Positions 3,438 to 19,910 are shown, numbered from the stretch's first letter. The stretch is 58,320 bases of DNA from a virus (IMGVR_UViG_3300046791_000324:1-58320); one strand, 5' to 3'. Program-made: numbers and translations. Notes: generated by a model from the sequence alone, not told the origin.

Positions 3438-3438
3438 A

Positions 3439-4554: not shown

Positions 4555-5858
4555 GACCCTGCGGTTTGTTCAGCTCGAAGGCGGTCGATTGCGACATCGC
4601 CCTTCTCGTGAATGGTTGGCTGGCTGGCTGCGGCTCCGGGGTTGCTCGGGGCTCCGCCGTCGCGCAGGCTGGTGCGTGTGGCACCTTTGATGCGGGCGAT
4701 GAAGTCGTCGCGCTCCTTGAGCGTGGCTTTCAGCTTCTCGATTTCGGTGGCGAGAGTTTTCTTCTCAGCCTCGTGCTCCTCTTGGAGCATGGGAATCTCG
4801 GCCTGGAGCCGAAGCATCTGAGCGTAGCCGAGCGCGGCAACGGCGCGCATTTCGGGCGACGTGTCCTTGAGCATCAGCTTGACTTGGTCCTGCGTCTGGA
4901 GGACGAATTTGTTCTCGGCTTCGATGCCGGCCTTCTGCTCGGCGGTCGCGTTCGCGGGCACCGACTGAATCTTGAACCACGGGAGCTGCGGAGCGACCTT
5001 GGTCAGGTGCGTCTCGGCGGCGGCGTAGTGGGCCAGCTCGTCCTGCGTCTGGTTCTTCTGGCGCTCGGCCAAAAACTCGGACGCGTTCTTCTTGGCCTCT
5101 TCGATGGCGCGCTTGCGCTGGTCGTTGAGGTCCTCGTTCACGGCGAGCTTGTTCTCGACGTAGCGGCGGGTGACCGGCGGCAGTTTGTCGAGGATGTCTT
5201 CCCACGCGAGGTCTTTCGCCCCGATGGCTTTCATCTTCGCGAGAACGTCGTCGCTCGCGCCGGACTCTTTCAGCTTGGCCCAGATGGACTCTTCGTTCGC
5301 GGTGGCTTCCTTGACGTATTCCTTGAACGTCGGGTCGGCCTCCACGTCCATGCGCTGGCGGAACGCGCGCAGCTCTTTCAGCTCCTCGTCAACCTTCGGG
5401 TCAACGGCGGGGCGGGTCTCCAGCTCCTTTACCTTGGCGGCCAAGTCCTCGCGCTCCTTCGTAACGGCCAGGAGCCGTTCGCGGGAGGTTTTCTTGAGGG
5501 TCTCAAACGAGGTCGCGACTTCGGACTTCGTGTGCGGCGGCAACTGCACGGCGTCGAACTCGTCCTTGACGGGCTCGGGTGTCGCGGGCGTCGCGGGCGT
5601 CACTGCCGGCGTGGCGGCGGGGACGAGGTCGGTGGCCGCGGGGAGGACAACGGCGGGCGCTCCGGCATCCGGCTTCGGCGCGCTGGCCGGAGGCGTGGAC
5701 GCCGCGGGCGCGGCTGCGGCGGGCTCAGTTACGGGCGCGTCGAAAGGTTTGAAAAGGGCGTCAAGCGCGGAGCCGGTGTCGGCGATGGCGGCTTGGTCGG
5801 GTTTGATGTCAACCCCCGGAGGGATGGACGACAGTTCGGGAAGGGCGGTGTCAGCCAT
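4551..5858 (-). CDS. Capsid scaffolding/assembly protein
   Basis: Pro/Ala-rich disordered N-terminus then long coiled coil; lies between portal and MCP; start taken at M(ADTAL). Confidence 0.65.
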   Translation of the reverse strand: MADTALPELSSIPPGVDIKPDQAAIADTGSALDALFKPFDAPVTEPAAAAPAASTPPASAPKPDAGAPAVVLPAATDLVPAATPAVTPATPATPEPVKDEFDAVQLPPHTKSEVATSFETLKKTSRERLLAVTKEREDLAAKVKELETRPAVDPKVDEELKELRAFRQRMDVEADPTFKEYVKEATANEESIWAKLKESGASDDVLAKMKAIGAKDLAWEDILDKLPPVTRRYVENKLAVNEDLNDQRKRAIEEAKKNASEFLAERQKNQTQDELAHYAAAETHLTKVAPQLPWFKIQSVPANATAEQKAGIEAENKFVLQTQDQVKLMLKDTSPEMRAVAALGYAQMLRLQAEIPMLQEEHEAEKKTLATEIEKLKATLKERDDFIARIKGATRTSLRDGGAPSNPGAAASQPTIHEKGDVAIDRLRAEQTAGS

Positions 5859-5884
5859 AAGCACAGTTCGTAGTTATCGGTCGA

Positions 5885-6232
5885 TTAAGAGGTTGTCGGT
5901 TTATCAGATTTGTCAACCGCCGCTTTGTCTTCTTCCACCCAAGCGGAGTCGTCGTCGAGAGACTTGTAGTTCTCGGACGCGACCTCGGGGACCACAGGCT
6001 CGTTCGGGTTCTCGTAGGTCAGCTTGAAAATGACTTCGAGGACCTCGTTGAATCCGTCCACCTTGCCGGCGGCGACGAGCGTTTTATTTTTGTGCGTCCC
6101 GTCGAGCAGGGCGGGCTTGGCGATGTCCACGATTTGCAACATGCGCTGGCCGGAGGGTGATTCGAGAAAAGTCCGGAGGCGCGACGCGTCTTCGGAATTC
6201 CACTCGACGACTTTTGGCGAGAAGATAATCAT
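5885..6232 (-). CDS. Small protein following the portal (Bbp19-like position)
   Basis: FLESPSGQRML motif typical of the small gene after portals; overlaps the portal stop. Confidence 0.6.
   Translation of the reverse strand: MIIFSPKVVEWNSEDASRLRTFLESPSGQRMLQIVDIAKPALLDGTHKNKTLVAAGKVDGFNEVLEVIFKLTYENPNEPVVPEVASENYKSLDDDSAWVEEDKAAVDKSDKPTTS
5887..5916 (-). promoter_or_regulatory. Class-II promoter TTGACA-N18-CCTCTT
   Basis: Upstream of the scaffold gene. Confidence 0.6.
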
Positions 6233-8349
6233 TGAGGTAGCGGTTGTCCCATCGGGCCCATTTGCGGTGCGCCGGCTGCCTGGGCGGGCAGTGCTCCGGT
6301 CTGGTCAATCTGGTGAGCCATCTGGAGGCCCGCGTGTTGGTCCGCGGTGTCAGCGTGCTCCTGCGCGTTCTGTTCGAGCGCGGCCATCTCTTTCTGGAGA
6401 TGGTTGAGCAGGTCGGCAATCGGGGCGATTTCGTTTTTGTCAACGCCCTGCTGCGTCGCAAAGTTTACGTGCTCCATGCCGTGAGACATGAGAGCCTTGA
6501 GCGTCTCCACCTGGGTCGGGTCTTGAAGCGCGGCCTTCGCCACAGATTCGAGAGCGGGCACCAAAAGCTGCAAGTGCATCATGTGATTGTCGCGAGGGGC
6601 GACAGGCACAGGAGCCGAATGGCTGATGATGTGGTCAAGCTCGAACATCTGGATGCGGCTCTGCTCGGCCTGTTCTCCGGGGTCGTTGTCCGGCAGCAAC
6701 ACGGCGTCCGCGAACTCTTCGTCAATCTGCGCGGTGAGCTTGCGGCGTTCGAGTTCCTTCGCGTTGTAAAGCGGGTTGCCCCGGGCCTCTTGCGCGATGA
6801 GAATGATTTGCTGGCGTTCGAGGTCCGTGTAGTCCTTCACCGTCTCGGCGACGCGCTGGCTGGAAATGTAGTCCAGCTCCTCGCGCGACATCACCAGCAA
6901 AAGCCGGCGTTGCATGTCGAGGGCGTCCTTCTCGGTCGTGTCTGGGTCGCACGCGCATTTCTGAACGGTCGTCATCATGTCGGCGAACTGGTTCAGCGCG
7001 CGACCGATGATGTTGTCCTTCGACTCTCCTTCGCGCTGAGCGAAGAAGTCCACCTGGGCCTTCGTCACGCGTTCGCCCTCGAACACGCGCGGCGTGGTAG
7101 CGCCGGCAATCTGGTCGAGCAGGCTGGTGAGAAATTGGTCGAGCTGCAAGAAGGGCTCGACAGCCCCTTCGATTTTCCGGTCGAGGACTTCGTAGCCCTT
7201 GCCGATGAGAATGGTGTTGCCGACGACGCTCATGCGGAATTTCTTGAGCATCTTCTCGTCGCCTTGGATGACGAGCTTTCCGCTGAGGTTCAAGCGGTCC
7301 GCGACTTCGTTGCGCGTGCGGTCGAGCATCGCGGCGAGAGAATAAATCTCGCGGCCAATTCCTTTCGAGCCGTGGATGTTTCCGTTGCCGTGTTGGAAGG
7401 AAAAGAACACGCAGGCGTCCGACATGTTCTCGAACTCGTCCTCTTTTTCGTAGAGGCAGTCAAATTGGTTCGCGACGTAGATGTAGTGGCTGACTTTTCC
7501 CGTGGTTTCGCGCGCGAGAAGGTGCCACGTCTCGATGATGCGCGCGCCCTGCTCGTGAGAGATGCCGACGTTGCTCTCGCGAATCAAATCCTCATACATC
7601 CGCTCCCAGTTCGAGTATTTTGCGCGCCGATTCTCGGGAACTGCGTTGTTGATGGCTGCGACGGTCTCCGGAATGTTCCAGCCGGCGATTTTCGCGGCTT
7701 CTTTGTCCTCAATCAGGCCGAAAAGCTCGTGGATGAGGTATTTTTCCTTGAGCACGACGATTTGCGCGCTGTCCGAGTGCTGCTTGGTGCCCGTGGGGAC
7801 GAAAAACTCGTCCTGGCGCACGAATTTGGGGAACCACTCGAAGCGGTTGAGCCGGCTGGCGGCGCAGAAGCCGAAAAGTGCGTCCTCCTGGAAGATTTCA
7901 GTGAGAAGATTGTTCCAACCGGGCTTCTGGCGGCACAGTTTCGTGATTTCTCCGCGGAAGGCTTCGGTTTTCTTGGCCGCGCCGGGGGCGTCATCGGGGA
8001 AATGGCTGTTCGTCAGGTATTTCATCGACTGAATCGACATCACGAAGCGTGGTGCGACTTTGTCGATGAGCATCGGCAGCGGTTTGGTCGTGAAATTCGA
8101 TTTCCAGTCGAGCCCGTCCTGCTTCAACGCGTCGTGCGTGTAGGGTCGCTCGCTGTTATACTTCGCCATGATGCGCGCGTTCTTGATGTTGCGATGGCGG
8201 TTGTTCACTTCGAGCGAAGTGATGATGTTTTTCGCCTGCATCGCGTCTTTGATGGCGCGGTTGCGGGGTTTCAGATTCGGCCCGATGTCCGGCGGGGAGA
8301 CGGCACCCTGTGTGTCGCCAGTGTAGCCGGCGGTTTGGTTCTCAAGCAT
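6229..8349 (-). CDS. Portal protein
   Basis: 706 aa, downstream of TerL; helical, Q-rich C-terminus with DNHMMH, as in P22-like portals. Confidence 0.75.
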   Translation of the reverse strand: MLENQTAGYTGDTQGAVSPPDIGPNLKPRNRAIKDAMQAKNIITSLEVNNRHRNIKNARIMAKYNSERPYTHDALKQDGLDWKSNFTTKPLPMLIDKVAPRFVMSIQSMKYLTNSHFPDDAPGAAKKTEAFRGEITKLCRQKPGWNNLLTEIFQEDALFGFCAASRLNRFEWFPKFVRQDEFFVPTGTKQHSDSAQIVVLKEKYLIHELFGLIEDKEAAKIAGWNIPETVAAINNAVPENRRAKYSNWERMYEDLIRESNVGISHEQGARIIETWHLLARETTGKVSHYIYVANQFDCLYEKEDEFENMSDACVFFSFQHGNGNIHGSKGIGREIYSLAAMLDRTRNEVADRLNLSGKLVIQGDEKMLKKFRMSVVGNTILIGKGYEVLDRKIEGAVEPFLQLDQFLTSLLDQIAGATTPRVFEGERVTKAQVDFFAQREGESKDNIIGRALNQFADMMTTVQKCACDPDTTEKDALDMQRRLLLVMSREELDYISSQRVAETVKDYTDLERQQIILIAQEARGNPLYNAKELERRKLTAQIDEEFADAVLLPDNDPGEQAEQSRIQMFELDHIISHSAPVPVAPRDNHMMHLQLLVPALESVAKAALQDPTQVETLKALMSHGMEHVNFATQQGVDKNEIAPIADLLNHLQKEMAALEQNAQEHADTADQHAGLQMAHQIDQTGALPAQAAGAPQMGPMGQPLPQ

Positions 8350-8358
8350 AACTAAAGC

Positions 8359-8387
8359 AATAGGTTCACGTTTTTACCAACGGTCAA
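8359..8387 (-). promoter_or_regulatory. Class-II promoter TTGACC-N17-CCTATT
   Basis: 9 nt upstream of the portal ATG. Confidence 0.55.
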
Positions 8388-8604
8388 CCGGGCATTTCTC
8401 GGTTGTGAGCTGGGTTTTCAGGCCCAAAAAGCAGGAGCATCGGCGGCACTGGTCGGTTTGGGGGTCCCGGTGGAAGCAACAGTTGCAAGTCCGGCGTCGT
8501 TTTTTCAACGTCCGGCCAGAGACGAACACTTCGTCGCCCCGCCAGTAGGCTCGGGCCACGCGGAGAAGCGCCGTCGCGGCTCGAAATGGGTTCGGGAAGA
8601 CCAT
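8374..8604 (-). CDS. Small Cys-rich metal-binding protein
   Basis: RRRTCNCC...QCRRCSCFL...EKCPVDRW; start taken at M(VFPNP). Confidence 0.7.
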   Translation of the reverse strand: MVFPNPFRAATALLRVARAYWRGDEVFVSGRTLKKRRRTCNCCFHRDPQTDQCRRCSCFLGLKTQLTTEKCPVDRW

Positions 8605-9179
8605 CAGCAACTCCTTCGCCAGCATTCCGCCGGCAAGCTGGCGTCCTGGCGCTGTGGGACAGCGAGATGAACGACGGTGCAAACGTCTTCTTCGAGGGCG
8701 GAGCACACCGCGATACCAGCGTGGACCGGGTCTTGCCCGTTGAGGATGCCCCGGCGGCTGGTCGCGACGCTGGAGGCGCAGCTTCCGCACGTCGTCGGGA
8801 GGCTTCTCTGCCTCGGGCAGCGGGCGCAGATTTGCGCGCGCGCGAGAGCGACGTTGCGGTCGATAAGTTTAATGTGGCCGAGGCGCTTTTCCTGGCTGAG
8901 CCAGCCCATGTAGTTGAGAATTTTCGCCATCAGGTTCCCATTCGGCGATTCAGGAATCGGTCCGGGCCCGTTCGTGTCTTTGCAGAAGCCGCGGTTTCGC
9001 CCGCAGAGCTGCGTCATGATTTCGAGCGTGGGGTTTCCCACGTCCTGAGCGCGGCGCTGGCGATACTCAATGAGCTGCTTGACGAGCAAGTTGAAACTGC
9101 TGGCCTTGTGCTTGGTCCCTTCGGCGTCTTTGAACCACCAGCCGCCGTCGGGCCAGAGGTTCGGATTCATGGTCAGCAT
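8604..9179 (-). CDS. Cys-rich hypothetical protein
   Basis: RAQICARCP...CGSC...CSAL...C...ECW; between TerL and portal. Confidence 0.7.
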   Translation of the reverse strand: MLTMNPNLWPDGGWWFKDAEGTKHKASSFNLLVKQLIEYRQRRAQDVGNPTLEIMTQLCGRNRGFCKDTNGPGPIPESPNGNLMAKILNYMGWLSQEKRLGHIKLIDRNVALARAQICARCPRQRSLPTTCGSCASSVATSRRGILNGQDPVHAGIAVCSALEEDVCTVVHLAVPQRQDASLPAECWRRSC

Positions 9180-9180
9180 A

Positions 9181-11076
9181 TCATGGGTCGTCGGGGAGGT
9201 CCTCGAATCGGTTTGTGCAATCCACGCGATAGTCGGGACTGTTGTCGTCCTCGTCGTAGCCGTCTGCGGAAGTGTTTTCTGGCGTCATGCCGAACGTGAC
9301 CTGGGCGGCGTTGCGCGCGCCGAAGCACATCAGAGTAAAAGCGTCCGCCTCGTCGGGAGAGGTCGCCTGATTGCGGAGCTTGTAGTCGTCCTTCGACTCC
9401 ACTTTTGAAATTTTCCCGGTCGCGCGAAACCAGCGAGTGCCGAGTTGCGTGATGAGGTCCGCGGTGTCAGCCGCCGGCAAAATCTTGACGTAGTCGAACT
9501 CGATGAGCTTCTGCGCGAGGAACCACAGCTCCGTCTGAATCCGGTCGTAGAGTTCGTCGGGCGTCTTAGTGTCCTCCGCCATGATTTTGCGGTCGGTGCA
9601 GCCCTCGGAGTAGTTCACGGCTTGGACCTCTGTTGACCAGAGATATTTCACCATGTCCCACACGCCTTGCCCGTTGCCGGTGCGGTCCATGCAGAGCCAG
9701 CCCGGTTTGATGGAAAGCTGCTTGCAGATTTTGACGACGGCGTCCGCCAACTCCTTCGTGGGGATTTCTCCTACGGGCTTCGGGAACTTGAACATCGCTT
9801 CGAGCTGGAGAGCCCAGCGAGGCGCGTTGTTGCCGACTCGGTTCTTGAAAAAAATCGTGGTGCCGTTCGGGGCGGCGACGGTCGGCGGCAACCTGATGCC
9901 GGCGGCCACGCCGAATTTTCCCTTCGCAAAATACGCGGAGTCTTTTCCTTGGAGCGCGGGGTCGAAGCCGGCGCATTCGTTCGGCGTTTCGAGCCAGATG
10001 AACTCGCCCTTGATTTTGTTGAGCGTCCCGCCGGAGATGACTGACATGCACACGCCCATTGGCGGGAAGCAGCCGCGCGCCATCGTGTGGTAGCCCTGCG
10101 AGTCCGTGCCGCCGGAGTTCGCGATGATGAGGTCGTAGCCCTCCTTGGTCTGGAGGCCCTCGTAAATCTTAACGCCCGCCTGGACGTTCTCGGAATACTT
10201 CGCGTCTAGCCGGACCACGCGCCAGCCGCGCACTGATTTCCAATCGAAGTCTCGGTCCGGGTCGAAGCCCGCCCAGCCGCCCTTCGGCTCGCAGCGTTTG
10301 CCGACTTCGTCCTGCGGGTCAGTCGGGTTGAAAGCGCCGATGACCTTGAGACCGTTGTCGCCTTGCGCGTTCGCCAGGACGTTGTCGATGTCTTTCCAAA
10401 TCCCCTTCGGGATGTTCACCATTTCATCGAGGAACACGAACATGCGGCTCAGCGTTCCGAAAATTTTGTGTGGCTTCTTGCGGTTGAATCGTTTCGTCCC
10501 CTGGATGCGGCCCGCGGCCTTCTTGCCGAGAGGCACGACGACTCCGCGGATTGCGCCGCGGCGTTTGCGGGGGTCGATGCCGATGAAAAGTTTTCCGATG
10601 ACGCCGGGCAGCGGGATGGTCGCGCTCCGGTGCAGTTCGACAAGGTGCGAGAAAAGATTGTCCTCAAGATGGTTCTCGGACGGACCGATGACCTGCACCG
10701 TGGTGAACTCCGGGTCGCGAATCCATTCGAGCATCAGGCGCACGCCCATTGAGTAGGACTTGGACATGGACGCCGCGCCCATGAGCAGGATGTAGTTGTC
10801 GGAGTCGAACGCGCGCCACACGCGAGCCGTGGACTCGGGCTTCGGCGTGAACAAAGTCGGGCTCCACAAAAGCTGTGCGGCCTCTTCCATGCCGGCGTTG
10901 TTGAGGCAGTAGTGGAGCAGAGGCGTGAGGACGGCGAAGGCCTCGGACTTCGTGGTGACCTTGTCGTTGCGGCCTGCGTTGGCGATGAGCAGGCGCGCGG
11001 CTTCGACGGGCTGTTCCGCGTGGAGTAGAACGGACAGCTTGTCGATGAGAAGTTTTGTCTCCGCGGGGATGGGCAT
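9181..11076 (-). CDS. terL: Terminase large subunit
   Basis: Walker A-like GAASMSKS, Walker B VFLDE, coupling motif FNP, nuclease acidic residues GFDPA, MDRTGNG, SPDEADA. Confidence 0.9.
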   Translation of the reverse strand: MPIPAETKLLIDKLSVLLHAEQPVEAARLLIANAGRNDKVTTKSEAFAVLTPLLHYCLNNAGMEEAAQLLWSPTLFTPKPESTARVWRAFDSDNYILLMGAASMSKSYSMGVRLMLEWIRDPEFTTVQVIGPSENHLEDNLFSHLVELHRSATIPLPGVIGKLFIGIDPRKRRGAIRGVVVPLGKKAAGRIQGTKRFNRKKPHKIFGTLSRMFVFLDEMVNIPKGIWKDIDNVLANAQGDNGLKVIGAFNPTDPQDEVGKRCEPKGGWAGFDPDRDFDWKSVRGWRVVRLDAKYSENVQAGVKIYEGLQTKEGYDLIIANSGGTDSQGYHTMARGCFPPMGVCMSVISGGTLNKIKGEFIWLETPNECAGFDPALQGKDSAYFAKGKFGVAAGIRLPPTVAAPNGTTIFFKNRVGNNAPRWALQLEAMFKFPKPVGEIPTKELADAVVKICKQLSIKPGWLCMDRTGNGQGVWDMVKYLWSTEVQAVNYSEGCTDRKIMAEDTKTPDELYDRIQTELWFLAQKLIEFDYVKILPAADTADLITQLGTRWFRATGKISKVESKDDYKLRNQATSPDEADAFTLMCFGARNAAQVTFGMTPENTSADGYDEDDNSPDYRVDCTNRFEDLPDDP

Positions 11077-11080
11077 TTAA

Positions 11081-11770
11081 TCAAAACCTCCGAAGTTTCT
11101 CAATCCACTGATACTTGGGCCAAAACCCGGCGTGCTTCATGTCGAACCCATAGTGGACGAGCGGCGCAGTTTTGAAACTCTCGCGAGGGAATCTTCCTTG
11201 AACTCCACACTCTTTTTGTAACCATTCGGGTTTAGGAAAGTTTTTGTGCTCGAACATGCGAACAAGTAGGCTCAGGTCGGAACAGTGATATCCGTGATAC
11301 GTGGATGAATCATTCCAGTCGTTCTTGTCCGGAGTCCAATTTGCGATTATCTCGCACATCTTCTGGTAGTGCTCTCGCGTGCCCAGGACTGCGCCCAAAT
11401 CAACGGGGATAGGTGGATGCTCGCAAAAGACAACCATCTTGTTAGGGTCTGGTTCGCGAGGGGAGAGTCCGTAGTTTATCACGTCATAGTCCAACATGAT
11501 TCCGCCACCATGCGTGCCGGCTTCCTGCGCCGCCATCGCCAGCCATCGGATGAAGCACGCTCGGTCATAAAGTGGGCCGTATTCAGACGGAAGTGACGAC
11601 ACCCGTTGATTGAATCGCTCCCACATAGGGTGTTGCCTCGCGTCGCCTTCGTTCAGGACAATGGGCTCCCACCCATGTTTTTCCCAGGACCTCGCCCACA
11701 CATCTATAAGGCGGCGTTGAGACTCGTCGTCGTAAAGACCAACCGGCATGTAGTAAGTGTAGCATCTCAT
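11081..11770 (-). CDS. Putative DxD glycosyltransferase, paralog A
   Basis: W.RSW...GWEP, CFIRWLA, GGIMLDYDVINY (GT32-like GGxxxDxD). Confidence 0.65.
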   Translation of the reverse strand: MRCYTYYMPVGLYDDESQRRLIDVWARSWEKHGWEPIVLNEGDARQHPMWERFNQRVSSLPSEYGPLYDRACFIRWLAMAAQEAGTHGGGIMLDYDVINYGLSPREPDPNKMVVFCEHPPIPVDLGAVLGTREHYQKMCEIIANWTPDKNDWNDSSTYHGYHCSDLSLLVRMFEHKNFPKPEWLQKECGVQGRFPRESFKTAPLVHYGFDMKHAGFWPKYQWIEKLRRF

Positions 11771-12468
11771 TCAATAGGTCGGATTTTCTCAATCCATTCG
11801 TGTTTAGGCCAGAAACCAGCATCGCGCATTGCGTATGCAAAGTGTGTCATGGGGGAACTTTTCCACCCATCGTGCGGGAAAAGCGAGCACCCGGGAACGC
11901 GAATAAGCCACACTGGCTTTTCTTTTGTCCCTTCAAACATCCGCTCCAGAAGCCTGAGGTCGTCGAGATGGTATTGATTCCCCGCAACATCCCAATCCCG
12001 CTCGTCGGGCTTCCAGGCAGCGAAGAGTTCGGCCATGTCTAGATAGTGTTGTGCGCTCCCTTGCACAGCCCCCATGAAGATTTTGTCGGGGGGTGAGTTG
12101 GAGAATATCCGCATAAATCCGTCTGACGTGTTTCTCGGTTCAAACCCATAGTTTATCACATCGTAGTCCACCATCATGCCTCCGCCCACATTCGCAAGCG
12201 CAAGCCAGCGCATAAAGCAAGCCACTGTATAGTGCTCGCCGTATTTCGTGGGCTTTGTGGCGAAGTGCTCATTGAAGAAATCAAATCGGGGGTGTTGTTT
12301 TGCGTCTGTTTCCGTCAGCACAACAGGCTCCCATCCGGCGCGACGCCAACTTCGTTCCCAAACCTTGATGAGCGAAAGCTGCGTGTCCACGGGCCACAAC
12401 CCGGGCACATCGACGTAATAAGTGTAAACGGGCAGACTCATCGGGTTTGAATAGACGATGTTTGCCAT
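11767..12468 (-). CDS. Putative DxD glycosyltransferase, paralog B
   Basis: Same motifs (CFMRWLA, GGMMVDYDVINY); tandem paralog of 11081-11770. Confidence 0.65.
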   Translation of the reverse strand: MANIVYSNPMSLPVYTYYVDVPGLWPVDTQLSLIKVWERSWRRAGWEPVVLTETDAKQHPRFDFFNEHFATKPTKYGEHYTVACFMRWLALANVGGGMMVDYDVINYGFEPRNTSDGFMRIFSNSPPDKIFMGAVQGSAQHYLDMAELFAAWKPDERDWDVAGNQYHLDDLRLLERMFEGTKEKPVWLIRVPGCSLFPHDGWKSSPMTHFAYAMRDAGFWPKHEWIEKIRPIE

Positions 12469-13385
12469 AGCTCATTGTTGACCGTGCGGTCGAAGAGGTC
12501 GCGATATGTTTTCTCCAGTCCGACCAAAAGGGTAGTTGATGGCTCCCACTTTAAGGCGGCGCGAAGCGCCGCGTTGTCGGATGTCTTATGGCGGCACCCC
12601 TGCGGGGCATCGCGGTTATAGAACCGCACGGGCTTGATGCCGGAGATTTCTTCGAGGATGTCCACGATGTCGTTCACCGAGTGGGGCTCGGGGTGCGCGA
12701 GGTTCAGCGGTCCGCATTTCAGTCCGCCCTGTCGCGCCTTCACCATCATCCAGATTCCCCGGACACAGTCGTCGATGTATAGGAAATTTCGAGTCTGCAA
12801 TCCGTCACCCCAGATTTCGATTTCGTTTTTCCCGCTGAGCTGAGCCGCGATGAATTTTTTGCAGAGGGCCTCGATGACGTGCTCGCGACCCGCGGGCCGA
12901 ATGTCGCCAGGACCGTAGAGCGTGTGGAACCGCGCGACGGCGACGGGGACATTCTTGTCGTGCGAGAATGCCCAGCACATATCTTCGCTGAAAAGTTTTT
13001 CCTTGCCGTAGCCGGTGTGCGGGCTCTCCGAGTAAGCATCATGCTCTCGCATCGCGTGGTGTCCGCTGGGATAGACGCAGGACGAGGACGCGAAAAAGTA
13101 GCAGGCCGGCGGCTGGTAGGCGCACGCGCGGAGAAGATTCGCGTTGATGACCGCGGACATCATGCAGTCGGCGTCGTTGGCTTCGACGAAGCCGATGCCT
13201 CCGACCTGAGCGGCTAGATTGAAAACGTAGTCCGCGTGCTGACACACCAGCGTTGCCGTCTCCGGGTTGAGCAGGTCGTCGCCATACTTCCGGCTGGCGG
13301 TCTTGACATCGAGTCCGCGCTCGCGGAGAAAGGTGGTGAGGGCGCGGCCAACAAAACCGCTGGCCCCGGCGACAGTTGCACGCAT
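12438..13385 (-). CDS. NAD-dependent nucleotide-sugar epimerase/dehydratase (GDP-mannose 3,5-epimerase-like SDR)
   Basis: GASGFVG Rossmann motif, LAAQVGGIG, SSSCVY, YGKEK (YxxxK), RFHTLYGP, IWGDGLQTRNFLYIDD. Confidence 0.92.
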   Translation of the reverse strand: MRATVAGASGFVGRALTTFLRERGLDVKTASRKYGDDLLNPETATLVCQHADYVFNLAAQVGGIGFVEANDADCMMSAVINANLLRACAYQPPACYFFASSSCVYPSGHHAMREHDAYSESPHTGYGKEKLFSEDMCWAFSHDKNVPVAVARFHTLYGPGDIRPAGREHVIEALCKKFIAAQLSGKNEIEIWGDGLQTRNFLYIDDCVRGIWMMVKARQGGLKCGPLNLAHPEPHSVNDIVDILEEISGIKPVRFYNRDAPQGCRHKTSDNAALRAALKWEPSTTLLVGLEKTYRDLFDRTVNNELWQTSSIQTR

Positions 13386-13393
13386 GGCGGGGA

Positions 13394-13585
13394 TTAGACC
13401 TTGGTGTTCGTGGTGAAGCCAGGGCCCTTTGCGCCGTCGTAGCTTTCGTTGAACTTGCCCGGGGCCTTGGTGGACGGGTCAGGTCCGGACTTGTTGCAGG
13501 AAGCGCCTTCGCCGAGTTCGGCGTCGCGATAGTCTTCCTCGTCTTTGAAGGACCTGGGGTCGTGGGCGGTGATGTTCTTTGGCAT
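13394..13585 (-). CDS. 63-aa hydrophilic hypothetical protein
   Basis: ATG 7 nt after a class-II promoter; the longer upstream frame overlaps ncRNAs. Confidence 0.65.
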   Translation of the reverse strand: MPKNITAHDPRSFKDEEDYRDAELGEGASCNKSGPDPSTKAPGKFNESYDGAKGPGFTTNTKV

Positions 13586-13592
13586 ACGAGGA

Positions 13593-13621
13593 AAGAGGTT
13601 CCTCGCGGGGCCAAAAGTCAA
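13593..13621 (-). promoter_or_regulatory. Class-II promoter TTGACT-N17-CCTCTT
   Basis: Recurrent motif. Confidence 0.6.
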
Positions 13622-13634
13622 CCTGGAAAAAGGT

Positions 13635-13730
13635 TGGGCAGCGGTGGAATCGAACTCACATCGAGTTGGGTAGCTCGTCCCAATCCGACCTGTTGCAACA
13701 GCCGGGCTCCTCGCCCGGTTCAAACTGCCC
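13635..13730 (-). ncRNA. tRNA-like RNA with SelC/allo-tRNA-like layout and a TTGCAA mini-loop
   Basis: Acceptor GGGCAGT/GCTGCCC-A; 6-bp hairpin CCGGGC/GCCCGG; CTG-TTGCAA-CAG; long arm; GTTCGATTC T loop. Confidence 0.65.
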
Positions 13731-13738
13731 GTAAAAGT

Positions 13739-13870
13739 AAGCGGGGTTTTTTGCCTCACTATCGCAGAGCTCTCTCGGGCCGCGGCTCGGCCATCTCCGT
13801 TGGTGCGGGCTCGACGCGGACCCCGCTTGCCGAGGACAAATGCTTCGGCCTGATTGGCGAGCGAACACCA
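13739..13870 (-). ncRNA. Pseudoknotted structured RNA (ncRNA-C)
   Basis: TGGTGT/GCACCA crossed by AAGCGGGG/CCCCGCTT; GCCGA/TCGGC hairpin; U-rich spacers on both sides. Confidence 0.5.
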
Positions 13871-13874
13871 AAAT

Positions 13875-14094
13875 TGGTGGAGATTTCTTTGGTCAGTTTG
13901 AGGCCCCCGGACCCGGGAGTTTTCAGGCTCCCTTCTGTTATCCCGGTTTTTCTGGTCGCCCAGTTTTTCCGGAAATGGCACCTACTCTCAGGTTGTCACG
14001 TCTCCCCTCCGCGTTTGGAGCGCGGTCAGGACTTGTCGCAAGGTGGACGTTCACCGATTTAGCGGCTGTTTAGTCGCCGGCTTTCAGCCCCTCC
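13875..14094 (-). ncRNA. 220-nt multi-hairpin RNA ending in ACCA (ncRNA-B)
   Basis: 5' GGAG pairs with 3' CTCC-A-CCA; at least 7 hairpins; AATTTT spacers. Confidence 0.6.
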
Positions 14095-14099
14095 AAAAT

Positions 14100-14276
14100 T
14101 CGGGCCTACTTCACCAAGGGCCATTGCTCCATTACTGGGCAGCTCCCTTGTATTCTCTCGACAGCGATTGGCGTGTGGCGACGCCTACGTTTTACGCAGC
14201 AACCAAGAGCTTATCATACTCATTTGGCTTCTTGCACCCGCACCGTATCGTGATACCGGATGCCGCCTCGCGCCGA
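14100..14276 (-). ncRNA. 177-nt multi-hairpin RNA (ncRNA-A)
   Basis: TCGG/CCGA closing stem; GCATCCG/CGGGTGC, AGCCAA/TTGGTT, CTGCGT/ACGTAG, GGCGT/ACGCC, CAAGGG/CCCTTG with a CCA-GTAA-TGG tip. Confidence 0.55.
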
Positions 14277-14281
14277 GAAAT

Positions 14282-14391
14282 TGGCGGGTCCAGGGTTTAA
14301 GCCGAAGCATACCCATCTTGGCTCCTGGCAGCCCTCGACCGTAAATCACGAGGGCTGTCACGAGCCGTGTCCTTTCTTAGACGACAGACCC
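14282..14391 (-). ncRNA. tRNA-like RNA with greatly extended anticodon arm and CCA end
   Basis: GGGTCTG/TGGACCC-G-CCA; D arm GTC/GAC; ~16-bp arm GGCTC..CAGCCCTCG/CGAGGGCTG..GAGCC; atypical T arm with a C(TTCG)G tip. Confidence 0.7.
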
Positions 14392-14393
14392 AT

Positions 14394-14465
14394 TGGTTGC
14401 GGAGACAGGAGTCGCACCTGTGGAGTTTTGCTTATGAGACAAAATTGAATCTCATTCTCTCCGCA
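14394..14465 (-). tRNA. Atypical tRNA-Met/Ile2 (CAT) with a minimal D arm
   Basis: TGCGGAG/CTCCGCA-A-CCA; GAAT-GAG-ATTC; TTTTGT-CTCATAA-GCAAAA; ACAGG-TGCGACT-CCTGT. Confidence 0.8.
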
Positions 14466-14466
14466 A

Positions 14467-14478
14467 TTTCAAAGAACA
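14467..14478 (-). promoter_or_regulatory. boxA-like antitermination element TGTTCTTTGAAA
   Basis: Resembles rrn boxA; lies between the promoter and the first RNA of the cluster. Confidence 0.55.
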
Positions 14479-14491
14479 AACCTAACACCAG

Positions 14492-14521
14492 AACATATCA
14501 CGCAAAACGCGCGACCGTCAA
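14492..14521 (-). promoter_or_regulatory. Sigma70-type promoter of the RNA cluster (TTGACG-N18-TATGTT, TG-extended -10)
   Basis: Sequence motif directly upstream of the cluster. Confidence 0.55.
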
Positions 14522-14532
14522 CTCAAGAAAAA

Positions 14533-14715
14533 CTAAATTGGGAGGATGGCTTGCGCGGTCACCGTGTGACCGTATTCCTCGCCGCGCATGTCCGTCTTGT
14601 GCTGCACCACAAACGCGATGCTGCCGGCGGCCACCTGCTTCTGCAACTTAGCAGAAAGCGCGGCGGCAATGAGGTTCAGCAGCTCCGTTTCGTTGATTTC
14701 GACTTTGAGGTTCAC
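14533..14715 (-). CDS. Hypothetical protein
   Basis: GTG start overlapping the upstream TGA; 60 aa. Confidence 0.55.
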   Translation of the reverse strand: MNLKVEINETELLNLIAAALSAKLQKQVAAGSIAFVVQHKTDMRGEEYGHTVTAQAILPI

Positions 14716-14849
14716 TTGGCCTTGCTCCCGGTTTTTTCCCAGTTCTTGGGATGCAGTTTCTTGCCGGCGTTGAGCGCCTTGGCGCGCTTCTGGATTTTCT
14801 TGGACTCCTTCGGGGAGTTGATGAACTTGATGGTGGTGAGGTCGAACAT
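14712..14849 (-). CDS. Small basic hypothetical protein
   Basis: MFDLTTIKFINSPKESKK..., 45 aa, phage-like codon bias. Confidence 0.5.
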   Translation of the reverse strand: MFDLTTIKFINSPKESKKIQKRAKALNAGKKLHPKNWEKTGSKAK

Positions 14850-14863
14850 GTTGGTCTTGGTGG

Positions 14864-15154
14864 CTAGTTGTTTGGGTTGAAAACGGTGAGCGGGCGCGAG
14901 ACCCCTTCGACGCTCTCGCCCCAGGCGAACAGAAAGGCTTCGTGCAGCTTGGCGGTCTCGGCGTTGCGCGCCGCGGCAGCCTTCTTGCCCTCGCCCTGGT
15001 CGGGCGCGGCGAATTGAAAGGGCTCCTCGCAGCCCACGGTGTAAACTGCCCAGGCATCGCAGCCCAGCACGGGGCTCTGGAATACCCCAGAGACGGAGAC
15101 GATGTGTTGTGCTCGGAGGAACATGCCGTTTGGTGCTTCGATGATTTTGCTCAT
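14864..15154 (-). CDS. Hypothetical protein
   Basis: M(SKIIE) start downstream of TTGACA-N17-TACCTT. Confidence 0.6.
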   Translation of the reverse strand: MSKIIEAPNGMFLRAQHIVSVSGVFQSPVLGCDAWAVYTVGCEEPFQFAAPDQGEGKKAAAARNAETAKLHEAFLFAWGESVEGVSRPLTVFNPNN

Positions 15155-15155
15155 A

Positions 15156-15389
15156 TCAGTAAATTTCTTTTCTACGCAGGGGTAAGGTATCACCTGGGTG
15201 CGCGCATGTCAAGTCGCGGATGGTGCGGGCAATCGCTTTCTCCACCAGCTTCTGCACCCAGCCAAAGCCGGCCAAGAGTTCCTCCATCGAGCTGTCGGGG
15301 TGCAACAGGCAGTAGTCCCGGAAAAGCGGGTTGGTCTCGTTCATCTGTTTGAACTCTCGCTCGATTCTACTTGCGGCGTCTTTTCTCAT
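15156..15389 (-). CDS. Hypothetical protein
   Basis: 77-aa ORF in a packed operon. Confidence 0.45.
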   Translation of the reverse strand: MRKDAASRIEREFKQMNETNPLFRDYCLLHPDSSMEELLAGFGWVQKLVEKAIARTIRDLTCAHPGDTLPLRRKEIY

Positions 15390-15765
15390 TGGCTTTGATT
15401 TTCTTGCACAGGTGCGTGAGGTTTGAAAAGGTGTTGCCCGCAGCCATCACGTAGAGGATGCGCGTGTGCAGCTCGAACCATTCGTTGCTGTGCTCCACCG
15501 TGAGCAGGTGCGCCAGCTCGTGTGACATCGTGTCGATGATTTGATAGGGCAGGTCGAGGCCGCCCCACTTGTCTCCGCTGTTCGAGTTCCGGACGCGAAT
15601 GCAAATGTCGCCGTGCTTGTTGCACTTGCCGTAATACCAACATTTCTTTCGGGGCAACGGGGAGACGGAGCGCAGCGGCAGATTGAACATGCGCGCGTGA
15701 TGCTCCACCTGTCCCTTCACGAACTCAAAAAGCAGGCGGTCAGATTTCTTCAGGAGTTTGCTCAT
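15367..15765 (-). CDS. Zincin metallopeptidase (WLM/SprT-like)
   Basis: DTMSHELAHL (HExxH) followed by EH...WF. Confidence 0.75.
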   Translation of the reverse strand: MSKLLKKSDRLLFEFVKGQVEHHARMFNLPLRSVSPLPRKKCWYYGKCNKHGDICIRVRNSNSGDKWGGLDLPYQIIDTMSHELAHLLTVEHSNEWFELHTRILYVMAAGNTFSNLTHLCKKIKANEKRRRK

Positions 15766-15953
15766 GTTTCGATTTTGATGCAGGGCTTTGTTGAGCCGAC
15801 CCCGGCGTAGTAAAAGTATTCTGTGGTGAGCGACACGGTTTCCGCGTTGTCAAAGTTGCTGTCCCAGAGTCCGTCGTTGACCAGGACGGGGACCTTCCCG
15901 TGGCCGGCGGACTGGAGCGTCTGCAATTCGAGAATGAGTTCGTCGAGTGTCAC
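15762..15953 (-). CDS. Hypothetical protein
   Basis: VTLDELILELQ...; GTGA and ATGA overlaps with neighbours. Confidence 0.6.
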   Translation of the reverse strand: MTLDELILELQTLQSAGHGKVPVLVNDGLWDSNFDNAETVSLTTEYFYYAGVGSTKPCIKIET

Positions 15954-16645
15954 TTGCCGCCCTCCTGTCGCCGCTTCATCTCGCGCGTGTAGAGCACGCC
16001 CACCGTGGACGCAAACCAGTAGCGACCGTTCGGCGCGGGGAAGCCCTGGCCCTGCATATACCGCGCGATGTGGCGGAAGGTCCACTTGTCGCCGTTGCGG
16101 CACTTCACAATCGTGGCAATCATTGCGCGCTCAGCGTCCGTCTGCCCGTAGGGCTTCGGGCCCCCACACGGCTCGCCGGTTTCCCGTGCGACCTTGCGCC
16201 GGCCAGCCTGGAGCTTCAACACGAGCTGCGCCTTTTCCCACTGAGCCAGTGCGCCCAGGAGCTGTCGAATCAAAACGCGTGTCGGGTCGGCGTCTGCCAT
16301 CACGAGTTCCTCGCCCGAGTCCGCGGCATAAACCTTGATGCCCTTCTTGCGGCACTCACTCAGGAAAATCTCCTGCACCATCAAGTCGCGTGCGATGCGT
16401 GACGCGTCTTCGACGACGATGGTTTCAATCCCGTGGGCCGCATTCGCGCCGGCCAACGAAAGAATTTCGTGCAGCCCCGCGCGGCTGTCGAACTCCGTGC
16501 CTCCGGACTGTTGGTCCTCGAAGGTCCTCACGATGCGCCAGCCCTTCTTGTCGCAGAAGCCGGAGATTTTGTTTTGCTGGCGGTCGAAGCCGCCGCCGTT
16601 GAGCTGCTCCTTCGTGGAGACGCGGCAGTATGCGAAAACTTTCAT
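15950..16645 (-). CDS. Serine recombinase (resolvase/invertase family)
   Basis: AYCRVSTKEQ (catalytic Ser), SGG...RAGL, DASRIARD, C-terminal GGPKPYG plus HTH. Confidence 0.92.
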   Translation of the reverse strand: MKVFAYCRVSTKEQLNGGGFDRQQNKISGFCDKKGWRIVRTFEDQQSGGTEFDSRAGLHEILSLAGANAAHGIETIVVEDASRIARDLMVQEIFLSECRKKGIKVYAADSGEELVMADADPTRVLIRQLLGALAQWEKAQLVLKLQAGRRKVARETGEPCGGPKPYGQTDAERAMIATIVKCRNGDKWTFRHIARYMQGQGFPAPNGRYWFASTVGVLYTREMKRRQEGGK

Positions 16646-16647
16646 GG

Positions 16648-16980
16648 TTAGAAAACCCAGCGGATGGTGACGCTCGACCAGTCGGTTCCGTGGAAGGGCG
16701 AATCGGCGTTGAAGCCGAGGTCCAAAAAGTGGTGGCGCACCCTCTCGGCAGCTTCGTTCACCGCGTATTCAATCTTCGGCAGCAACACGGAGGCTTCCAA
16801 GCTGTTAGAGGAAACGGACACGCTCTCCTGCGGGTCCTCTTCGTGGAAGGCGCTGTCGATTCTAGTCTCCAGCGCGGCAATCCAGTCAGCCGTGAACTGC
16901 TCCACGCGCCGCTCGAACTTCGCTTTGCGCTCGGCCTCTTGCACGTCGTAGCGCGCTTTCATCTCGGCGTAGGTTTTCAT
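16648..16980 (-). CDS. Hypothetical protein
   Basis: ~110-aa ORF in a packed operon. Confidence 0.6.
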   Translation of the reverse strand: MKTYAEMKARYDVQEAERKAKFERRVEQFTADWIAALETRIDSAFHEEDPQESVSVSSNSLEASVLLPKIEYAVNEAAERVRHHFLDLGFNADSPFHGTDWSSVTIRWVF

Positions 16981-16982
16981 TG

Positions 16983-17591
16983 TCACTTGTTCTGGTCACG
17001 GCTGTCCATGATGACTTGGTGAAGTTTGCGGAGCGTGGCGCGAAGGCGCAAAATCTCGTTGTAGTTGTAGTTGTGGTCTCGCATCGCGCGGACCGACTCC
17101 AGCTCGGAGCGCATCGTGTTGCACTCCGTCGCGGTGACGCGGCTGTTGTCGCGATTGGGGTCCAGATGCTGCGTGCAGATGTGGGCCGCGACCAAACAGC
17201 CGGGGTGTAGCTTGTCGATTGCGCGGAGCAGTTCCGACTGGCGGTTGTTACACGCGGTCAGGCTGGCGATGGTGAGTTCCGACTGCGCGATGGTGTTATA
17301 CTTCTCGGCGTTCAAGGCGCGCAGGTCAGCCACGTCCTTCGTCAGGCCGGCGATGACGTTGGTGTTCTCGTCGCGAATCTTCACGAGCCTCTCAGCCGTG
17401 AGCTGGTGCGCGCCATCCGTGTCGGACACCCGCTTCTCAAGCTCTCGGATTTTGTTGGCCTGCCACTCGTTGGTCTTGGTGTAGCTGGCGTTCTGGCGTT
17501 CGAGAGACTCAATCGTAGTCTTCACGTTGTATGAGGCGATTTCAAATTGCTTGATTGCGTTGTTCATGAGCATGAGTCCGGTGAGGAACAT
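16983..17591 (-). CDS. Coiled-coil hypothetical protein
   Basis: Heptad pattern, 202 aa. Confidence 0.6.
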   Translation of the reverse strand: MFLTGLMLMNNAIKQFEIASYNVKTTIESLERQNASYTKTNEWQANKIRELEKRVSDTDGAHQLTAERLVKIRDENTNVIAGLTKDVADLRALNAEKYNTIAQSELTIASLTACNNRQSELLRAIDKLHPGCLVAAHICTQHLDPNRDNSRVTATECNTMRSELESVRAMRDHNYNYNEILRLRATLRKLHQVIMDSRDQNK

Positions 17592-17924
17592 TCAGTCGTT
17601 GCGTTTGAGGAGTGACGTGGGGACGTGCAGGACGGTGACGTGCTTGCCGCTCTCCCCGATGAAAAGCACCTTGCTATCGTCAAAATAAAGCGGGTTGACT
17701 TCGAGGATGACTCCAACGGCTTCGTGGAATAGGCAGGCCTTGATGATGACCCGGTCGCCCTTCTTGAGCGCCGCGGGCGCGGGCTTCTCGACGGGCACCA
17801 CGACGGCGTGGATTTCTTTGGGCGGCGCGTTGAGCAGGGAGCAGCCGTGGAGTATTCCGAAGGCGACACCCATGCTCAGGGCGAAGGTTGCGAGCAGTGC
17901 GAATTTGGTTTTGTTGATGTTCAT
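17592..17924 (-). CDS. Putative lipoprotein with a KOW-like motif
   Basis: Signal peptide ending LHGC; LKKGDRVIIK; preceded by TTGACA...TAGACT. Confidence 0.55.
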   Translation of the reverse strand: MNINKTKFALLATFALSMGVAFGILHGCSLLNAPPKEIHAVVVPVEKPAPAALKKGDRVIIKACLFHEAVGVILEVNPLYFDDSKVLFIGESGKHVTVLHVPTSLLKRND

Positions 17925-18300
17925 TACGGTGGTCAGTCTATCACAGGTTGGCGGTTTGTCAAATAGCAGATGGCGAAAGCGAGGCCGATGCAAAAGGGCG
18001 AGCAGCCGGTGGCCGCCAGGAAGCTAATCACGGCGAGCGTGCTCAAGAGGGTCTTGAGGGCCGGGCTCATCGGCTTGCAGAGTTCGTGTGCCGGCGGGGC
18101 CGGGGGCGCGGGGCGGCTCAGTCCAAAACTTGAGTTCATAATTTGTTGCCTTTGCGGCTGTAGATTTTCTTGCTCTGCCGGACGCGGGTCACGGGTTTCA
18201 GTGCGCCCCAGCTCCGGCGGACCTTGATGTCTTTCTTCTTCACACCCCAATGTCGCACAGCCCGGGAAAAAGTCAAGGCCCACGTCATGCGGGCCCTGCT

Positions 18301-18406
18301 TGGATGCGACCGGGAGGGATTTGAACCCTTGGGTGCTCCTTCACGGACCTACCCAGCGCCTGCAACTTGCCAACCCGGGTCCCCCCGGAGCCAGCTCAGC
18401 CGGTCA
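18301..18406 (-). ncRNA. Stand-alone tRNA-like RNA with the same layout as 13635-13730
   Basis: TGACCGG/CCGGTCG acceptor, hairpin, GTTGCA linker, TGGGT/ACCCA arm, AGGG-TTCAAAT-CCCT T arm; TTGACG...TACTTT upstream. Confidence 0.6.
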
Positions 18407-18800
18407 GGGGAAAAGTAGTCCCGCGGGGTCCCGGGCGTCAAGTCAAGCGGGCCAGTAGAACTCCGGTAGTGCGGGCGCGTAGTCATGCGGACAGGTCGCG
18501 AGTAGGCAGTTTTTTCATGGCGCGGCAACCGCTGAGCGGGGGACCCCCCGCGGAATGCCCCCCTTGGGGGTGGCCCTCGCGCTTTAACGCTAACGCGTGA
18601 GAATCGCGCATCGGCAAAGGCTGCCGACCGCTGCTGTCCTCAGTCTGGACTGTCCGCCTGCCCCTAAGTCGTTGCGTCGCAAGGTCAGCGCGTCATCGGG
18701 CCACACGGATGCGGCATTCTCACGCGTAAGCAGCTCTTGTGCCACGACATATCGTGGGCGCGACACGGTTCGTCCCACTTCTGGGACGCTCGACCTTCGC

Positions 18801-19463
18801 TCAGTCGTCGGCAGAATCTGCCGGGTCTAGGGGATTTGCTGAGGTCTTGTCCCGTGCTTGTGCGGCGTTGCGCCTCTGCACTTCTTCATTCGCCTCAGCG
18901 ATAAGCTGTTGCGTCACGGGCTCAGGCTGTGCGTCTGGATTGGACAGGCTCGCGATGATGGCTGCGTGCAAGTCGTTGCTGCTCGGGCCCTTCTGTCCGT
19001 TGCCGCCTTCGGCCTCGCATCGTTCGGTGATTGTGTCACCGAGGGCTGCGTAAGTCATTCGATGACAGGTCTCAGCGCACGCTGCCATGTCCAGCAAAAA
19101 CTTGGCCGACAACTGCATTCCGCCGTCTCGGGTCCGGACGCAGGCGCGGCTCAGTAGTTCCTCGTTGGTCATGGCCTGGACTTCGGTCAACAGCCTGTTC
19201 ACCTGCTGCCGCAAAACCTGGGCCTGGACAAAGCAGAGAGCACGGTTGGTTGCCCTCTCGAAGTCGCCCGGCTTGCCGCTCTTGGACATCAGCGACACGC
19301 GCCTGATTTTGTCCTGCCATCCTTCAGCCTCGGCCAGCTCCTGAATCTGTTTCGGTTCAAGGTCCAGAGCGTGGGCGGTGCGCTCCACATCTCCGACGAA
19401 GGTCATGTAAGCCAGAAAGGCTTGGCTCACGTCCACCTTGTTCTTGTCCAGTGCTCGGCTCAT
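18801..19463 (-). CDS. Putative terminase small subunit
   Basis: N-terminal HTH-like GDVERTAHALDLEPKQIQELAEAEGW then a helical region; start taken at M(SRALD). Confidence 0.5.
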   Translation of the reverse strand: MSRALDKNKVDVSQAFLAYMTFVGDVERTAHALDLEPKQIQELAEAEGWQDKIRRVSLMSKSGKPGDFERATNRALCFVQAQVLRQQVNRLLTEVQAMTNEELLSRACVRTRDGGMQLSAKFLLDMAACAETCHRMTYAALGDTITERCEAEGGNGQKGPSSNDLHAAIIASLSNPDAQPEPVTQQLIAEANEEVQRRNAAQARDKTSANPLDPADSADD

Positions 19464-19654
19464 GTCTCGATGTCTCCGCCTCTGGTCTCGTCCGTGGCCT
19501 TCGGCTGTGGCTTGTTCTGGTTCCACCATTCCCGCCTCGCGGCGAGCCGGCGCACGCGCTTGGTCTGGGCATACAGCTCCTTCGCGCGTTCGGATGAGCC
19601 GGTGAATAGGTTGGCCTCGTGGTCTTCGGGGCTGTCTTGCGGTGGCAGTGGCAC
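19460..19654 (-). CDS. Hypothetical protein
   Basis: GTG 4 nt after class-II motif TTGACA-N17-CTTGTT (19659-19687). Confidence 0.5.
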   Translation of the reverse strand: MPLPPQDSPEDHEANLFTGSSERAKELYAQTKRVRRLAARREWWNQNKPQPKATDETRGGDIET

Positions 19655-19745
19655 TCTGAACAAGTGCGCCAGCCGGCGCTATGTCAAAAGGAAAAGTGCC
19701 CACAGCCCGCCCGAGTTCCGTTTGACCTGATGTCCTTGTGCCATC

Positions 19746-19910
19746 TGTCCACGATGTCACTGACACTCTTTGTTTTTCGTCACCAACTCTTAGGAACCCT
19801 CTCAGCATACACATTCACATATATATTTAATTCCCGTGTAATAGAATAAACTGAGAGGGTTCCTAAGACTACATGACGAAAAACAAAGAGTGTCAGTTAC
19901 ACCGTGGACA
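19746..19910. repeat. ~60-bp imperfect inverted repeat around a 45-nt AT-rich spacer; putative origin at the strand switch
   Basis: Arms 19746-19805 and 19851-19910 with perfect blocks ACTGACACTCTTTGTTTTTCGTCA and TCTTAGGAACCCTCTCAG. Confidence 0.85.

Follow-up and report, generated by a model that had tools for sequence, protein, structure and literature searches.

On balance, the 220 bases flagged at positions 13875 to 14094 probably represent the 3' two-thirds of one RNA module (A) and the whole of a second (B), both part of a soil phage's polycistronic RNA operon whose small stable RNAs would be excised by host tRNA-processing enzymes, much like RNAC and RNAD of T4. At the level of sequence, the region proves to be an array headed by a predicted promoter, in which separate, exchangeable and partly structure-constrained units lie by an atypical tRNA.

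The window, i.e., the whole 58,320-base stretch that was analyzed, is a complete IMG/VR virus record with a CheckV completeness of 81%. Minus-strand genes span positions 616 to 19814, and the flagged RNA is likewise placed on the minus strand, on which the tRNA, the promoter and the CCA ends all agree. It lies in a non-coding stretch of ∼950 bases without a credible gene, bounded upstream by a 174-aa ORF (14533-15057) and downstream by a gene for a 63-aa protein. The following features were assigned to this stretch and its downstream border:

14492-14521, minus strand: putative sigma-70-type promoter (TTGACG, 18 nt, TATGTT), with TG before the -10.

14394-14465, minus strand: atypical tRNA-Met (CAU) with encoded CCA, called by ARAGORN; the first unit of the operon.

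14282-14391, minus strand: unit U2, a cloverleaf-like, anticodon-less tRNA mimic with an acceptor-like stem (GGGUCUG/UGGACCC) followed by G-CCA.

14169-14281, minus strand: unit U3, ending in CACACGCCA, with a close homologue directly 3' of the tRNA-Met in the relative L037.

13976-14168, minus strand: module A, a structured RNA of ∼193 nt with the invariant blocks CCCGAAUU, GGUGAACGUCC and GAGACGUGAC.

13875-13975, minus strand: module B, ending in CUCCACCA; the 3' half of the flagged region.

13943-13972, minus strand: B1, a two-tier hairpin of module B (CCGG-A5-CUGG-GCGA-CCAG-A5-CCGG), predicted in minimum free energy (MFE) folds.

13875-13942, minus strand: B2, the conserved 3' domain of module B, ending in CUCC-A-CCA and followed by AUUUU.

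13731-13874, minus strand: module C, with a predicted long-range pairing between AAGCGGGG and CCCCGCUU; both motifs are found in 11 of 13 distinct arrays.

13637-13730, minus strand: last unit, tRNA-like, with a T arm (UUCGAUUCC) and neither an anticodon loop nor an encoded CCA.

13394-13585, minus strand: gene for the 63-aa protein (MPK..TA.DPRSF..), which is kept in nine relatives' loci.

The 63-aa protein, whose sequence begins with MPKNITAHDPRSF, aligns across the relatives with 74-86% identity and matches no Pfam family. In all relatives, the 60 bases upstream of its gene contain CCGGTTGAC(A/T)TT and a pyrimidine-rich leader with no clear Shine-Dalgarno sequence, and a gene for an NAD-dependent epimerase (12438-13385) lies downstream in the window. 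An extra ORF of about 200 aa (MENEFCKTLVPTECISYPRSGHHALV...) is located between the array and the 63-aa gene in the relatives L006, L007, L015, L016, and L019 and is absent from the window.

A single promoter-like site (14521-14492) was found between 13200 and 14800, compared with a mean of 0.3 in shuffled sequences. The same promoter-like arrangement, TTGAC..GATATGTT, lies upstream of the tRNA-Met in the relatives and is present in all 13 arrays compared. The phage also carries a sigma factor gene of its own (42240-42938). The tRNA-Met at 14465-14394 is the sole gene that ARAGORN calls in the whole window and is not listed by the Rfam tRNA model at E<=10. By eye, its D arm has a very small loop and its T loop is non-standard, and its predicted fold is more stable than that of all 200 shuffled sequences (MFE z -3.47). 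It is kept in most relatives, the homologue in L015 scoring 24.2 bits, below the cut-off of 29 bits.

The segment that contains U2 (14393-14257) folds with a z of -2.80 (1 of 200 shuffles equally stable), and a long hairpin stands where the anticodon loop would be. In the last unit, this place is taken by a tetraloop; the unit gives a weak tRNA-Sec-like match (18.8 bits, E 1.7) and has an MFE z of -2.36, with 5 of 200 shuffles equally stable. The 5' motif of U2 (GUCGUCUAA) is found also in units of L010, L012/L013, L015, and L019, and two tRNA-like genes with a similar 5' motif (GUCGUCUAG and GUCGUCUAAU) were seen by eye in L036, which suggests descent from a tRNA.

A second RNA array is located on the plus strand of the window (47754-48190), headed by a by-eye promoter (TTGACA-16-TAAAAT). 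It consists of two long tRNA-like units at approximately 47797-47973 (177 nt) and 47981-48084 (104 nt), both of which have a T arm and end in ACCA followed by AUUUU, and of a tRNA with a 36-nt insert at 48092-48190 (Rfam, 43 bits). None of the three units was called by ARAGORN. The phage further encodes an RNA ligase on the plus strand (32932-33888; PF09414, 47 bits; PHROG 548), which fits a tRNA-centred conflict and proves nothing about it.

Relatives were collected with the 631-aa protein encoded 3 kb away (9181-11076), which gave 15 viral-contig loci, most of them with 77-88% protein identity. Searches based on the 63-aa protein yielded six viral loci and, from an alignment, 12 metagenome loci; only L036 and L037 were new and had upstream DNA. 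Four loci obtained with the ORF 14533-15057 matched over 24 residues only and were left out. With contigs of the same sequence counted once, 13 distinct arrays were compared: the window, L006, L007, L010, L013, L014, L018, L015, L016, L019, L020, L036, and L037. In addition, four DNA sequencing runs were compared at the level of their contigs, and one soil-metagenome contig, X3 (record 4, depth 5.1), covers 13912-14393, a span that also includes U3.

In most relatives, the atypical tRNA-Met is present too, and the 0.6-1.5 kb of non-coding DNA that come after it are phage-specific in content. Module A occurs in three of the 13 arrays and module B in two. Module C comes immediately after module A in L013 and L037, which lack module B, while in L010/L011 the B2 domain ending in CUCCACCA stands directly ahead of module C, without module A. 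The order of modules varies as well, with the PK motif lying before C in L006 and L007 and after C in L010 and L013. Across these arrays, the modules behave as independent, exchangeable cassettes. In X3, the body of the tRNA-Met (14394-14462) is exchanged for 77 other letters exactly at the unit borders, which looks like a substitution by another cassette. Several relatives' arrays (among L006, L007, L010, L013, L015, L016, L019, and L037) hold conserved RNA modules that are missing from the window, including a unit of ∼70 nt starting with GUCGAGACGGGGUUUCGCG and, around GCAGACGGCUCCUGCGU..GAGAGCCGU, a compact H-type pseudoknot candidate; neither of these matches Rfam.

The units of the array mostly close with NCCA followed by AUUU. 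With a slash marking the border, the ends read ACCA/AU for the tRNA-Met, GCCA/AUUU for U2, GCCA/AUCG for U3, GCCA/UUU for A (GCCA/AUUU in X3), and ACCA/AUUUU for B. In the relatives, the motif CCA[AT]T[TC] was counted 38 times in 12,017 nt of arrays and 87 times in 115,060 nt of same-strand flanks, and is thus 4.2-fold denser in the arrays. Of the 13 CCAATTT sites in the window, 4 fall within the two RNA arrays, in sense orientation. CCA stands ahead of module C in 7 of 11 arrays, the remaining arrays having GCA, CUA or UUA at this position; another GCCA/AU, at 13858-13855, belongs to the conserved leader of module C.

Module C is the most conserved unit (window, L006, L007, L010, L013, L014, L015, L018, L019, L036, and L037). 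It begins with AUUUU directly 3' of module B's CCA, and GGCAAGCGGGG pairs across 73-119 nt with CCCCGCUUA, which has an A-rich run on its 5' side. A scan of viral contigs with the two blocks of C returned the known relatives and one chance match in coding DNA (L044).

The recurrence of C in 11 of 13 arrays is one of several observations that would also be compatible with a conceivable, albeit doubtful, alternative in which the ∼0.8 kb from the tRNA-Met to the 63-aa gene form one large uncut RNA in the style of GOLLD or ROOL, with C as its core and A and B among its exchangeable peripheral domains. The long non-coding stretch adjoins tRNAs in a phage, no minus-strand terminator was found within the array, and A and B lack clear 5' and 3' closing helices of their own. 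However, a search with the 4227 covariance models of Rfam 15, GOLLD and ROOL included, gave the tRNA at 48092-48190 as the window's sole match at gathering score, and thus no match to these or to any other large RNA; in the relatives, only tRNAs and chance-level matches were obtained. Moreover, the differing position of the PK motif relative to C, the enrichment of CCA and AUUU at unit borders, and the interleaving of bona fide tRNAs and cloverleaf-like units all speak against a single large RNA.

The 5' half of the flagged region (14094-13976) lies inside module A, which has homologues in L013 (5307-5433) and L037 (1752-1878) that share the blocks, the terminal hairpin and GCCA. Weaker similarity (AAUCG, CUGUC, AAGGGAGC) reaches position 14168, 74 nt upstream of 14094. 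The module ends in a hairpin with the loop GAGAG(U/A), followed by GCCA. The stem of this hairpin reads ACCU/AGGU in the window and AGGG/CCCU in L013 and L037, with three of the four core pairs double-changed and none broken (alignment A2), while X3 has ACCG/CGGU (U:A replaced by G:C) and retains the loop and GCCA. The helix ACGUC/GACGU is invariant everywhere, thus offering no covariation, and competes with GGUG/CACC.

Module B provides a second case. Within 13944-13975, X3 carries 13 substitutions and 7 inserted bases, and all eight pairs of B1 are kept, three of them double-changed: the outer stem CCGG/CCGG of the window becomes CUGG/CCAG and the inner stem CUGG/CCAG becomes CCGC/GCGG. The loops are not kept in X3, where A5/A5 is replaced by 9 and 5 nt and GCGA by a hexaloop. 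A by-eye counterpart of B1 in L010 consists of CCGAG...CUCGG around CCGCU-UGCC-AGCGG, of which the L010 MFE fold gives the inner hairpin only. B2 is homologous to L010/L011 (74.7% over 198 nt, in an alignment that also covers module C) and to loose ends of X3. A by-eye helix in B2, absent from the MFE folds, reads GGUC/GACC in the window, GGUU/AGCC in L010, and GGGU/GCUC in X3; its G:U pairs in L010 and X3 also indicate the minus strand. The 3' CUCC of B2 has three candidate partners, namely the local GGGAG, a G-run in the loop of the by-eye helix, and the distal GGAG, and the first two are indistinguishable since both strands are invariant.

The compensatory changes in these two hairpins show that parts of modules A and B are evidently under selection for pairing, as judged from few independent sequences (window/X3, L013, and L037 for A; window/X3 and L010 for B). 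Of the hairpins listed in the sequence-only reading, ACCU-GAGAGU-AGGU and the two-tier hairpin are thus borne out by compensatory change. GGC-UGAAA-GCC has no hairpin counterpart in L013 or L037, and the reading of a UGAGA loop fails as well, the U in question being a paired stem base that is G in X3 and L013.

Sequence searches added few members to either family. A covariance model of A's core recovered only its three training sequences from 16 sources, and a pattern scan of viral contigs with A's two blocks matched only the L012/L013 contigs; three genome-contig matches to these blocks were put down to chance, as they lie in long open reading frames and lack the hairpin and GCCA. Likewise, the viral-contig scan with the 3' block of B2 returned the L010/L011 contigs only, and that with the exact B1 hairpin returned none. 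With the 220 nt as query, nhmmer gave no match in 19 loci and also missed the homologue in L013, so that plain sequence search is insensitive here. A BLAST comparison with the whole records of five relatives gave one match of 23 nt (E 0.036), which was disregarded.

We consider it rather unlikely that A and B do nothing but separate the units of a tRNA array, be it as spacers or as decaying remnants of it. Their sporadic occurrence in the relatives (3 and 2 of 13 arrays) and the visibly tRNA-derived units that adjoin them would fit this view, as would their ordinary thermodynamic stability: module A alone has an MFE z of -0.52 (53 of 200 shuffles fold at least as stably) and module B alone a z of -0.41 (62 of 200). 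Against it stand the two hairpins kept by compensatory changes and the invariant blocks of 8-11 nt that module A shares with phages whose neighbouring protein is ∼80% identical. In addition, the 161 nt of the A core from 13991 to 14151 show no difference between X3 and the window among those listed (a further 9 substitutions and 3 indels, probably beyond 14320, lie outside the list), while X3 differs heavily right beside this segment.

At the other extreme, and just as improbable, module A might represent a novel class of functional RNA, built around a compact core, in which CCCGAAUU, GGUGAACGUCC, and GAGACGUGAC would form a catalytic or a protein- or ligand-binding centre and the GAGAG hairpin with GCCA would fit into a host enzyme that recognizes the 3' ends of tRNAs. 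Such an RNA could serve, for example, as a ribozyme by which the array processes itself or as a decoy against a defence nuclease directed at tRNAs. Alternatively, the transcript of the entire operon might form a GOLLD/ROOL-like RNA particle.

The original proposal of one 220-nt RNA from 14094 to 13875, closed by GGAG/CUCC-A-CCA and compactly folded through T-loops, a GNRA loop and a symmetric A5/A5 loop, is very unlikely to hold. Its description of the minus-strand sequence was accurate: the 5' GGAG, the 3' CUCC-A-CCA and all listed hairpins are present, neither ARAGORN nor Rfam finds a T arm, and the MFE fold does pair both ends. As a molecule, however, the region would begin inside module A, whose homology runs 74 nt further upstream, and would contain a conserved hairpin and a GCCA end in its middle, at 13976. 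The closing helix would join strands from two modules that are found apart from each other, A without B in L013/L037 and B without A in L010/L011. Since GGAG occurs four times in the 220 nt, a 4-bp helix with the 3' CUCC carries no weight. The fold of the 220 nt (MFE -71.5 kcal/mol, shuffle mean -67.8, z -0.79) is matched or exceeded in stability by 36 of 200 shuffles. Nor are the supposed signs of a compact tertiary fold maintained: among the few homologues, the UGARA T-loops, the GNRA loop and the A5/A5 loop are either altered or missing. That the region is instead protein-coding, through the overlapping open frames of 77-228 codons (13376-14062 and 13840-14073 on the plus strand, or a 5' extension of 13394-13981 on the minus strand), can practically be dismissed, as neither 13376-14062 nor 13394-13981 has a Pfam or PHROG match, the latter is conserved in relatives over its last 63 codons only, no coding-type conservation was seen, and coding is ruled out by the X3 insertions of 2, 3, 1, and 1 bases within 13954-13975, which would shift any frame, and by alignment gaps to L013/L037 that are not multiples of three.

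The view of a non-coding structured RNA of no recognized family agrees with the covariance searches, which gave no match in the stretch at gathering score and, at E<=10 over 13000-15000, two weak matches that both lie outside 13875-14168. No tRNA (RF00005), defined by a cloverleaf of 7-bp acceptor stem, D arm, anticodon arm with 7-nt loop, and T arm, was found in 13875-14168 by ARAGORN or Rfam, and the folds of this segment contain no T arm or anticodon loop. A tmRNA was defined by a tRNA-like domain with a T arm, an acceptor ending similar to GCUCCACCA with G3:U70, a tag frame and pseudoknots; none was found by ARAGORN in the window or by Rfam at E<=10, and position 3 of GGAG/CUCC is A:U. Both this idea and that of a group I intron in a tRNA were rejected, as there was no ARAGORN or Rfam match and the size is too small. 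The GAAAGCC block of A and the AAGCGGGG/CCCCGCUUA pairing of C resemble the strands of RNase P helix P4. An RNase P reading was nevertheless discarded, as RF00010, whose match (P1-P4 core, CR-I to CR-V) served as the defining feature, gave none at E<=10 in the whole record and none in the relatives, while finding 11 of 14 known genomes in a control. Support for the helix needed to complete a P2/P4-like pseudoknot is weak, the mean best helix being 5 bp within the same array and 4 bp across arrays.

Under the favoured reading as an operon of excised RNAs, transcription from the promoter at 14521-14492 would yield a precursor containing, in this order, the tRNA-Met, two tRNA-derived units, A, B, C, and the anticodon-less tRNA-like unit. 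Cleavage by RNase E-type enzymes, 5' maturation by RNase P and exonucleolytic trimming to CCA are established steps of tRNA biology. By analogy, the precursor would be cut in its A/U-rich linkers, presumably by an RNase E-type enzyme. RNase P would then cut at the acceptor-like stems to mature the 5' ends, and 3' exonucleases would trim back and halt at CCA. Small, stable RNAs ending in CCA are the expected products, ∼190 nt long for A and ∼100 nt for B. As a guess, these RNAs might offer tRNA-like 3' ends to host tRNA enzymes, for instance as decoys against tRNA-directed defences.

The kind of element is already known, and A and B are, on the comparisons made here, new and small families that are absent from Rfam 15. 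No description of either module was found in the literature searched, and the contig numbers of the relatives are absent from six searched supplementary files of the IMG/VR structured-RNA (csRNA) catalogue (PMC10690425). Two uncatalogued modules with signs of selection on structure are thereby added, a modest addition with few members.

The likeness to GOLLD and ROOL consists in a long structured non-coding RNA beside phage tRNA genes. Unlike these, the modules described here match no Rfam model, are shuffled, and are punctuated by CCA. Minihelices and microhelices that mimic the acceptor end of tRNA are synthetic substrates of RNase P, the CCA-adding enzyme and some synthetases. Module A similarly ends in a 4-bp hairpin, one base and CCA, and a pairing of GGAG(C) with (G)CUCC just 5' of A-CCA is possible in module B. 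In contrast to minihelices, these hairpins are the 3' tips of RNAs of 100-190 nt, the stem of A has just 4-5 bp, and identity elements such as G3:U70 are absent. Should the modules indeed mimic tRNA ends and act on tRNA enzymes or defences of the host, they would broaden the theme of counter-defence by phage tRNAs, compare the viral tRNA reported to neutralise PARIS (PMC11464382).

The closest known systems are RNAD (species 2, 119 nt) and RNAC (species 1, 139 nt) of T4, non-tRNA structured RNAs that share their strand with adjoining tRNA genes in a head-to-tail arrangement, as do the modules here. The T4 RNAs are presumably processed by RNase P. Like them, A and B lie in a same-strand tRNA gene cluster and have no terminator of their own. 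T4 rnaD follows a tRNA-Arg and ends in CACCA followed by AAUUA, comparable to the CCA/AUUU borders of the present array, and A and B share with it the NCCA 3' end and A/U-rich spacer; T4 rnaC has a T arm and no encoded CCA, like the last unit (13637-13730). Modules A and B differ from RNAC and RNAD in lacking a T arm and a closing acceptor stem, and the array contains one ARAGORN-callable tRNA only, unlike the T4 cluster. When 13600-14530 was compared by blastn with 50,697 phage records, the sole match was a tRNA-Met, in two records; in the absence of sequence similarity to RNAC and RNAD, we propose that A and B work like the T4 RNAs rather than that they are homologous to them. The roles of RNAC and RNAD are described as unknown (PMC3014915, PMC9697503), and a 2025 paper describes a convergent SNP in T4 rnaD during host adaptation (PMC12685909).

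Among the relatives, the array of L007 occupies the same genomic position and has the same layout of promoter, tRNA-Met and array, with units ending in CCA followed by AUUU. It contains the modules G, PK, and C and two Ala-type microhelices and lacks both A and B. Taken together, these comparisons suggest that the non-tRNA RNAs of phage tRNA clusters, of which those of T4 are the known example, can act as exchangeable cassettes that differ even between close relatives.
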